A stretch of 40,301 nucleotides of DNA from a virus. Below the pieces are notes generated by a model. That model did not search any database. It was given only the letters and a program-made list of their open reading frames with translations, and was not told the origin of the DNA. Where the stretch lies: the UHGV virus genome UHGV-0127505; one strand, written 5' to 3'. The position numbers and the translations under genes were made by a program. Shown in pieces: positions 6,794-7,282 of this stretch (within the stretch, counting starts at the first letter, position 1; the number at the start of each line of letters is the position of its first letter).

Positions 6794-7084
6794 TTAGTGA
6801 TTTAGGCCGTTGCCGCGTCCGTCGAGAAAAACTTCCACGAGCAAATCACGGGTATAAGTGCGCTCGATGCCGCGATGCAGATATAGCCGTCCGCGTAAAT
6901 TAGCTGATGCAGTCCAGGTACCATCTTTGTGTTTGACCAGCATTCCTGGCATGACCGCACCGCGATTAACGGTCTGCGTTCCGTAATGTTGATGAACCAT
7001 AAAAACTCCTGCCCGTAAGCTGGGCTGCTGAACATATATAGACTTCTGCGCGTATTCAGGCGGTGGATGGCCGCCGGTTGTCAT
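6794..7084 (-). CDS. Hypothetical protein, first gene downstream of OL/pL (N position); the frame stays open upstream to 7204 and there encodes an arginine-rich stretch
   Basis: ATG at 7084 preceded by GAGGCGG; upstream in-frame extension (TTG/GTG starts only) encodes RLRGVRGVKRTRERR. Confidence 0.5.
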
Positions 7085-7282
7085 AACTAAGCCGCCTCGT
7101 TGAAGCGACTGAGGTATGAAGTGTTGAGTTGATTTCAGCTGGTCACACCGACGTTCACGCGTCCGCTTCACCCCTCGCACTCCCCGGAGCCTGCTGAAAT
7201 TCAAGCTGCGGATCTAAGCGGTCATCGCAACGGTGAATCAGGTGGTTGCCGTATCGTTGTGTTGTTGCGATGAATTTATTTA

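Follow-up and report, generated by a model that had tools for sequence, protein, structure and literature searches.

A predicted KilR-type kil gene follows a conserved two-module RNA leader in the pL operon of a lambda-like prophage

The locus

The stretch of DNA analysed here (the window) is the 40,301-nucleotide (nt) viral genome UHGV-0127505, which contains a lambda-like prophage adjoining ybhC, the att-lambda site. This study concerns the beginning of its leftward early operon, transcribed from pL, where the original prediction had seen a single open reading frame (ORF) between gam (start 6718) and pL/OL. This ORF, 6794..7204(-), is indeed the only one there and encodes 136 amino acids (aa) from a TTG codon. 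It consists of two parts lying in one open frame, the last 68 codons being a kil gene and the rest belonging to the 5' leader of the pL transcript, which is about 270 nt long. Two conserved RNA modules make up the leader, a promoter-proximal two-hairpin RNA, here termed Element 1, and a covarying hairpin, Element 2 (Table 1). The leader was found at 95-100% identity in 2,231 of 5,426 complete Escherichia coli genomes, O157:H7 strains included.

Window positions 1331 to 6800 share 98.5% identity with positions 27724-33193 of phage lambda, a stretch comprising attP, int, xis, ea8.5, ea22, orf61/63/60a, exo, bet and gam. Lambda identity ends exactly at the gam/kil junction (window 6800), a mosaic joint, and kil, cIII, ea10, ral, sieB, N and nutL of lambda have therefore been physically replaced. 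The left arm of lambda is thus joined to a non-lambda pL/kil module, the kil-cIII-ea10-ral-sieB-N-nutL block having been swapped for a compact one that comprises pL, an untranslated leader and the gene for a KilR-type Kil of 68 aa. An S24/helix-turn-helix repressor, a YdaS-family Cro and a YdaT-family 'cII' make up an immunity region of Rac-like type.

The putative pL promoter overlaps operator-like ACAAC/GTTGT palindromes; it has the same layout as pR (TTGACT-17-TAATCT), and its architecture parallels that of phi80 pL. Transcription probably starts at about 7271, and homology with heteroimmune relatives begins at 7270/7271. A terminator scan found no intrinsic terminator in 7000-7271, nor between pL and exo.

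The first gene of the pL operon

The product of the long ORF matches PHROG 294 ('Kil protein for bacterial septation inhibition') with residues 60-136 on profile positions 4-80 of 83 (E = 2.4e-38), and the NCBIfam KilR model NF008465 with residues 69-136 on profile positions 1-70 of 73 (E = 9.8e-17). The latter match scores 60.7 bits, under the curated cut-off of 92, suggesting that the protein represents a sister subfamily and not an equivalog of KilR. Aligned with KilR of E. coli K-12, the 68-aa protein is 36% identical over 61 aa, Met1 on Met1 (E = 9e-13). A Pfam search of the ORF product returned no family at E <= 0.01, indicating that this Kil is not of the lambda type (Pfam Lambda_Kil). 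The first protein-coding gene of the pL operon is therefore predicted to be a KilR/phi80-type kil, by family an FtsZ inhibitor, and the kil function is predicted to be present even though homology to lambda Kil is lacking. The original prediction could match the ORF to none of N, cIII and kil; this holds for N, cIII and lambda-type kil, all absent together with ral, and fails for kil itself. The gene is an ordinary one, already annotated as kil in RefSeq.

The start of the gene is indicated by several observations. RefSeq holds exactly the 207-nt gene beginning at ATG 7000, in a genome with a 100% identical leader, and the Kil homologues of HK225, Citrobacter, Kluyvera, Enterobacter and locus L088 begin at the equivalent Met. 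Translation of Kil would accordingly be expected from ATG 7000, behind a strong AGGAG.

A scan of GTDB genomes with Kil yielded nine loci only, whose leaders cannot be aligned with that of the window. In Citrobacter, Kluyvera and the metagenome-assembled contig L017 (loci L012 and L015-L018), a Kil homologue is likewise the first gene after the promoter. The leaders of these loci are different, being long and containing a long-range stem, GCTTCGCGGTGGTG...CACCACCAGCGAAG, and a motif GTTCCGC-hairpin-GCGA(C/T)AAGG just 5' of the Shine-Dalgarno sequence.

The open frame upstream of kil

The observation that the frame stays open 5' of ATG 7084 and encodes an arginine-rich stretch, MNFSRLRGVRGVKRTRERR, is correct; its interpretation as an N-like RNA-binding motif does not stand, since the frame is broken in natural variants and both the homologues and RefSeq place the start at ATG 7000. 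Phage records, E. coli genomes and IMG/VR contigs supplied 57 unique natural variants of the leader, and in some of these the frame is lost between 7204 and 7085 through an insertion of 5 nt, an insertion of 1 nt or a deletion of 1 nt. The 5-nt insertion, at 7133, occurs in four unique variants, and the other frame-breaking indels lie at 7175 and 7201. Because such indels occur in nature, the open frame is no evidence of coding. In the annotations of the relatives, no annotator called a conserved gene in the leader upstream of kil. The arginine-rich peptide 'RLRGVRGVKRTRERR' (7192-7148) is the in-frame translation of a segment within Element 1, on the most conserved nucleotides of that element. 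The upstream frame is thus untranslated pL leader, and the arginine-rich 'motif' is a translation artefact of a G-rich structured RNA.

Element 2 and the upstream AUG

At Element 2, a 62-nt stretch shows conservation with phi80, HK225, Klebsiella KO-TP1 and Enterobacter ENT1. In phi80, HK225, KO-TP1 and the Enterobacter phages, an intrinsic (tL1-like) terminator, itself located after N or other genes, directly precedes it. Scanning IMG/VR for an exact pattern and adding the loci already collected gave 202 instances in 94 unique forms. The conservation of the first eight codons of the upstream ORF (uORF) in this sample is partly imposed because the scan pattern fixed them; the covariation of the hairpin is not. 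When 36 unique sequences were folded with RNAalifold, seven pairs of the hairpin (CAUACC to UUAUG) showed compensatory changes, with up to six pair types per position, and in the consensus structure CAUA 7118-7115 pairs with the UAUG that contains AUG 7084. G-U pairs are frequent, suggesting that the RNA is on the pL-transcribed strand. Past MTTGGHPP(P), the peptide is unconserved across the Element 2 forms, and several nucleotide blocks are conserved. The same AUG opens a 21-aa uORF in phi80 and HK225, with a stop ahead of the next gene, and uORFs of other lengths or frames elsewhere. Element 2 most likely controls translation entering kil, by occluding a start codon or via a short uORF. It is a strongly covarying RNA without an Rfam match, located just 5' of kil or other early genes in many enterobacterial phages.

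A different account of the same nucleotides is that translation from ATG 7084 yields some or all of Kil as a 96-aa protein, the added prefix being a genuine N-terminal extension and Element 2 merely the translation-initiation region. In all 57 E. coli-type variants, the interval from ATG 7084 down to 7001 shares the frame of kil and has neither stop nor indel, so that a 96-aa isoform is possible, which weighs against a purely untranslated leader. Long forms have also been annotated by several depositors, a GAGG lies 10 nt 5' of ATG 7084, and the ninth codon varies synonymously among relatives (CCC, CCT, CCA). However, the profile and KilR alignments start at Met 7000, where the Shine-Dalgarno sequence is far better, and the extension is missing in the homologues of L088, HK225, Citrobacter, Kluyvera and Enterobacter. 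In addition, AUG 7084 is base-paired in the covarying structure, the uORFs that this AUG opens elsewhere show that the peptide past residue 9 is not what is conserved, and by our count the substitutions in 7084-7001 have no third-position bias (five at third, four at second and two at first positions). We therefore regard a 96-aa Kil as rather improbable, and prefer Element 2 as a regulator of translation into kil.

Structure and distribution of Element 1

Element 1 is about 100 nt long and starts about 43 nt after the predicted pL start. It is found intact under at least three different 5' contexts and at least three different 3' contexts. The 5' contexts include an E. coli type, an O157 type (shared sequence from 7237) and a phi80-like type; in the O157-type relatives the 7229-7271 part is replaced and Element 1 is kept. 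The genes on its 3' side are unrelated: locus L194 has an HNH endonuclease there, and locus L239 a mini-ORF that is accompanied by a long leader. A PHROG check of the genes 3' of Element 1 in these two loci recognised no N, a weak negative given that PHROGs do not recognise the phi80 gene annotated as N either. A second subfamily (loci L194, L239, L265, L272, L273, L276, L295 and L301) shows compensatory changes in both hairpins A and B; in this comparison 98.5% of the cells pair, versus 26-38% in slid controls. The hairpin A loop (AUUUCAG) and the 3' tail of the element (CUGAAAU) have complementary sequences, and both natural changes there lead to G-U pairs, pointing to a possible loop-to-tail pseudoknot.

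Scans against Rfam 15, covering the whole window at the gathering threshold and the intervals 6950-7500 and 10440-10900 at E <= 10, matched neither leader element and gave nothing relevant; only isrK and a C4-type RNA were detected, elsewhere in the window.

In L239 (10375-10860), Element 1 is followed by a three-codon mini-ORF, AUG AAG CAC UAA, with a strong Shine-Dalgarno sequence, and then by about 450 nt of GC-rich DNA in which no ORF is convincing up to the next gene; this may be a further large leader RNA.

An orphan boxA downstream of cro

The boxA-like site reported downstream of cro was confirmed: CGCTCTTTAACAA is an exact match at 10779-10791(+) and the sole one in the window, the next-best sites having two or three mismatches. 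By our estimate, about 0.002 exact matches are expected by chance in 40 kb on both strands. The site occupies the position of lambda nutR/tR1. The hairpin described next to it is present as well, a 5-bp stem GACTG-ATTAA-CAGTC at 10810-10824, but it is not a conserved boxB, being created by a 12-nt insertion that is missing in PhiR26_1, IdasGreatGrand and 24 of the 27 boxA-bearing IMG/VR relatives. No second copy of this hairpin was found.

The distribution of boxA is narrow. Among 80 kil-linked IMG/VR loci, the site occurs in 27, all of them same-immunity relatives and one with a mutated form, CGTTCTTTAACAA; the other 53 loci have an identical Kil and no boxA within 3 kb. Perceval, O157:H7 and CKJ, heteroimmune relatives that share the pL leader, have a cro-cII spacer of just 24-30 nt, and no boxA was found either in them or in the Element-1 relatives. 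A nutL is absent, as the original prediction had noted: a boxA search of 7000-7300 finds none within three mismatches, and the leaders of the relatives likewise have none. N is annotated in no relative, and a scan for arginine-rich motifs in the small ORFs of the early region returned only Xis, NinE and spurious frames.

An N-type system finds no support at this locus because N and nutL are missing, the boxB-like hairpin is unconserved and the orphan boxA is restricted to a single immunity type. No N, cIII or ral can be recognised in this lambda-like phage, and in view of the missing nutL its early antitermination, if any, must be atypical, a point on which the original prediction holds. The phage probably does not use lambda-N-type antitermination. 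Some evidence counts against this conclusion. N-like proteins are hard to detect by homology, and the phi80 gene annotated as N (X13065; L004 5286-5582) belongs to a PHROG of unknown function and has no obvious N-terminal arginine-rich motif. As PHROGs thus fail to recognise even phi80 'N', the profile-based absence of N is weak evidence in this phage group.

The proposal from which this analysis set out, that the long ORF is translated from an upstream TTG or GTG as an atypical N-like antiterminator whose arginine-rich N-terminus binds boxA and the hairpin downstream of cro, can be judged on this basis. It would account for the frame that is open from TTG 7204 and for a consensus boxA with a 5-bp pentaloop hairpin at the nutR position. 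However, between 7204 and 7085 that frame is interrupted by natural indels, the C-terminal domain is Kil and not N, and phages with unrelated genes on the 3' side conserve the nucleotides concerned at the RNA level, where the stems show compensatory changes. The hairpin is a lineage-specific insertion, there is no nutL, and relatives with the same leader have no boxA. The N-like model is largely refuted and has only a minute chance of being right.

The orphan boxA is perhaps a relic; alternatively, host Nus factors could still make it functional, which is a further point against the conclusion drawn above. A consensus boxA could function without N through host NusB/NusE, NusG, NusA and SuhB, as in rrn operons, suppressing Rho-dependent termination between cro and cII or tuning cII translation. 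The site agrees with the rrn-type boxA, TGCTCTTTAACAA, at 12 of 13 positions and fits the pattern YGCTCTTTAACAA exactly; besides its nutR/tR1 location, it lies in a cro-cII interval that is rut-like, C-rich and G-poor, with 16 C versus 7 G in 81 nt. Yet the confinement to one immunity type and the natural mutated variant count against such a role, and the flanks of boxA are nearly invariant, giving no sign of selection on boxA itself. Moreover, rrn-type boxA complexes suppress Rho-dependent and not intrinsic terminators such as those at 13929-13950 and 16286-16311. A host-factor role for boxA is accordingly judged unlikely.

Taken together, these results suggest, with a probability of about 80%, that the pL operon starts with a KilR-type Kil behind an untranslated two-module RNA leader and that lambda-N-type antitermination is not involved. 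The sequence features described in the original prediction are all present; most of what was read into them is not upheld, the gene being recognisable, the motif an artefact and the N-type system without support. For annotation, the start of kil is fixed and a spurious 'N-like' reading is removed.

Element 1 as a candidate antitermination signal

Lambda N/nut and the put RNA of HK022 are the two textbook routes to terminator-resistant early transcription in lambdoid phages. HK022 is the classic N-less lambdoid phage, and its put RNAs are cis-acting antiterminators. The structured pL leader of the window, especially Element 1, is a candidate substitute for nut or put.

Evidence for this comes from the position of Element 1 in other phages. 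Phi80-like pL leaders (58 unique) have their first 45 nt in common, CATCGAAACGAAACATCGACAGCTGAGCGAAGTTAGCCAGCGGCG (loci L004, L005, L100, L104, L107, L120, L123, L134, L194 and L239 among them). After these 45 nt, they carry a boxA/nutL cassette, as in phi80, HK225 and KO-TP1, a clear homologue of HK022-type putL, scoring 95-105 bits with a put covariance model, or Element 1; a few have variant or degenerate boxA forms. Of these three alternatives, nutL and putL are established signals for processive antitermination. Since sister phages hold nutL or putL at this place, and since the intrinsic terminator ahead of xis and int has been kept in a phage lacking N, Element 1 most likely favours read-through or a greater stability of the leftward RNA, with either the pL transcript or RNA polymerase itself as its target. 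We regard antitermination or read-through by the RNA as the leading mechanism for Element 1, though less probable than not; the same caution applies to the possibility that it represents a third kind of early-operon antitermination signal, cis-acting, promoter-proximal and unrelated in sequence to nut and put.

Several results weigh against such a role. A put covariance model (R2), built from HK022 putL and putR and seven putL homologues, scored its training putL sequences at 95-105 bits and HK022 putR at 53 bits; on the window it gave nothing at E < 0.6 and nothing at 7128-7228, and it found none in the Element-1 loci. No second copy of Element 1 was detected with its covariance model (R1), the pR side included, each locus having one copy. 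The heteroimmune relatives show no obvious antitermination device on the pR side either, which implies that such phages may simply tolerate partial termination. The double-change pairs in Element 1 number only three and represent one divergence event between the two subfamilies, and the entire 278-nt leader does not exceed shuffled sequences in folding stability (z = -0.09). With regard to the copy number, some putL-bearing loci likewise have no detectable second put within the DNA examined. Local alignment of the leader with the pL regions of phi80, HK225, KO-TP1, ENT1 and HK022 recovered only the common transcript start, CATCGnAAC..., with scores within the shuffle range.

The leader elements might instead regulate only the toxic kil or yield a small RNA (sRNA), in the manner of KilS of the Rac prophage, with no role in terminator read-through and no need for processive antitermination. 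Rac does have an annotated, northern-verified sRNA in the kilR 5' untranslated region (5'UTR); in the window, Element 2 lies immediately 5' of kil and pairs with a start codon, the operon has no intrinsic terminator between pL and exo, and the pR side has no counterpart of Element 1. On the other hand, Element 1 also precedes unrelated genes (L194, L239) and so is not tied to kil, no terminator follows it to release an sRNA, and a strong terminator stands ahead of xis and int. Its slot otherwise holds nutL or putL, and it has no similarity to KilS. A purely kil-directed or sRNA role is possible, though doubtful. The first nucleotides of KilS (L309 2406-2503, E. coli K-12 Rac), GUGGGAGUGCG, are similar to the GGGGAGUGCG core of Element 1, but R1 gave no match on the KilS locus and KilS was rejected as a homologue of the element.

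Early antitermination in many N-less lambdoid prophages is an acknowledged gap. In a 2025 analysis of another N-less phage, the mechanism was unknown and 'put RNA' was only guessed (PMC12315714). Our searches of the literature on phi80 N/nut and on N-less lambdoid phages yielded little. The N-less phage described here has lambda's own left arm, no put, and a conserved structured RNA in the nutL/putL slot. If the antitermination role of Element 1 is true, RNA polymerase from pL would read through lambda's own leftward terminators without N, by means of a cassette that is interchangeable with boxA/nutL and putL and present in prophages of about 40% of complete E. coli genomes.

Other features of the window

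In the rex position, between cI and OL, the window has a gene for a 644-aa SIR2_2-domain protein (7642-9576(-), PHROG 23427) and a 29-aa ORF at 7484-7573(-). Relatives carry other cargo there, e.g. a Panacea-domain pair or a lipoprotein, suggesting that the rex position is likely a defence or moron slot. A mosaic boundary with relatives falls at the terminator 7454..7475. Within the nin region, 15042-15917(+) is a P1/Gifsy-type antirepressor control module, comprising a promoter-like site, isrK, a C4-type antisense RNA and an Ant-like 202-aa gene. Three intrinsic-terminator-like sites on the plus strand, at 13929-13950, 15132-15146 and 16286-16311, lie between the replication genes and Q (18806-19204).

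Table 1. Coordinates of the features discussed, in window positions.
Feature	Position	Strand	Description and basis
Intrinsic terminator in the pL operon, upstream of xis and int	4280..4298	-	Terminator scan; lambda ~30673-30691, inherited with the left arm; presumably tL3
kil, 68-aa KilR/phi80-type	6794..7000	-	ATG 7000-6998, stop 6796-6794; profile matches and KilR alignment
Shine-Dalgarno AGGAG	7006..7010	-	5 nt 5' of ATG 7000; read from sequence
Element 2, conserved leader RNA	7059..7118	-	CAUAcc, 9-10 bp hairpin, gUUAUG, ACAACC, GGCGG-CCAUCCA-CCGCC
Upstream in-frame AUG	7082..7084	-	Opens MTTGGHPPP; fused in frame to kil in this lineage
Element 1, conserved leader RNA of ~100 nt	7128..7228	-	GAUGACCGCUUAGA, hairpin A, GGGGAGUGCGAGGGGUG, hairpin B, GUGUGACCAGCUGAAAU
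5'-most leader	7229..7271	-	(C)AUCGCAACAACACAACGAUACGGCAACCACCUGAUUCACCGUUGCGAUG; ends able to pair as a 9-bp stem
Putative pL promoter	7278..7306	-	TTGACG 7306-7301, 17-nt spacer, TTAAAT 7283-7278; inferred from sequence
Intrinsic terminator ending the cI-SIR2 (pRM) transcript	7454..7475	-	Terminator scan; just upstream of OL/pL
boxA-like 13-mer	10779..10791	+	CGCTCTTTAACAA; between cro (stop 10766) and YdaT-type 'cII' (ATG 10848)
12-nt insertion and the hairpin it creates	10804..10824	+	TTAACAGACTGA (10804-10815), hairpin 10810-10824; alignment with PhiR26_1 and IdasGreatGrand
isrK	15080-15152	+	60.7 bits
C4-type antisense RNA	15177-15262	+	72.7 bits

Comparison with known systems

The closest known counterparts of the gene are KilR of the cryptic prophage Rac (E. 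coli K-12 b1352) and the Kil proteins of phi80 and HK225, which are likewise proteins of 68-73 aa. As in the window, kilR lies in a leftward early operon with recombination genes adjacent and a long 5'UTR ahead; in the lineage studied here, by contrast, an upstream AUG is joined in frame to kil. KilS (b4833), the Hfq-associated RNA of the Rac kilR 5'UTR, resembles the present leader in that it is non-coding and stems from sequence ahead of a kilR-type gene, and it has its own transcription start. It differs in that it is 98 nt long and ends at an intrinsic terminator, whereas none follows Element 1 or Element 2.

With the N/nut system of lambda, the prophage shares a consensus boxA downstream of cro at the nutR position and a left arm that is lambda's own, including the intrinsic terminator before xis and int. 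Unlike lambda, it has no N gene, nutL or conserved boxB, and boxA is missing in the heteroimmune relatives with the same leader. The put RNAs of HK022 differ from Element 1 in sequence, without significant similarity or a significant match to the put model, and Element 1 has no second, putR-like copy. Nevertheless, Element 1 resembles them in its size of about 70-100 nt, its two stem-loops and its promoter-proximal place in the pL leader of a phage without N, in sharing the short motif GGGAG(U/C)GCG..GGGU, and in being an alternative cassette at the exact junction where true putL homologues are found.

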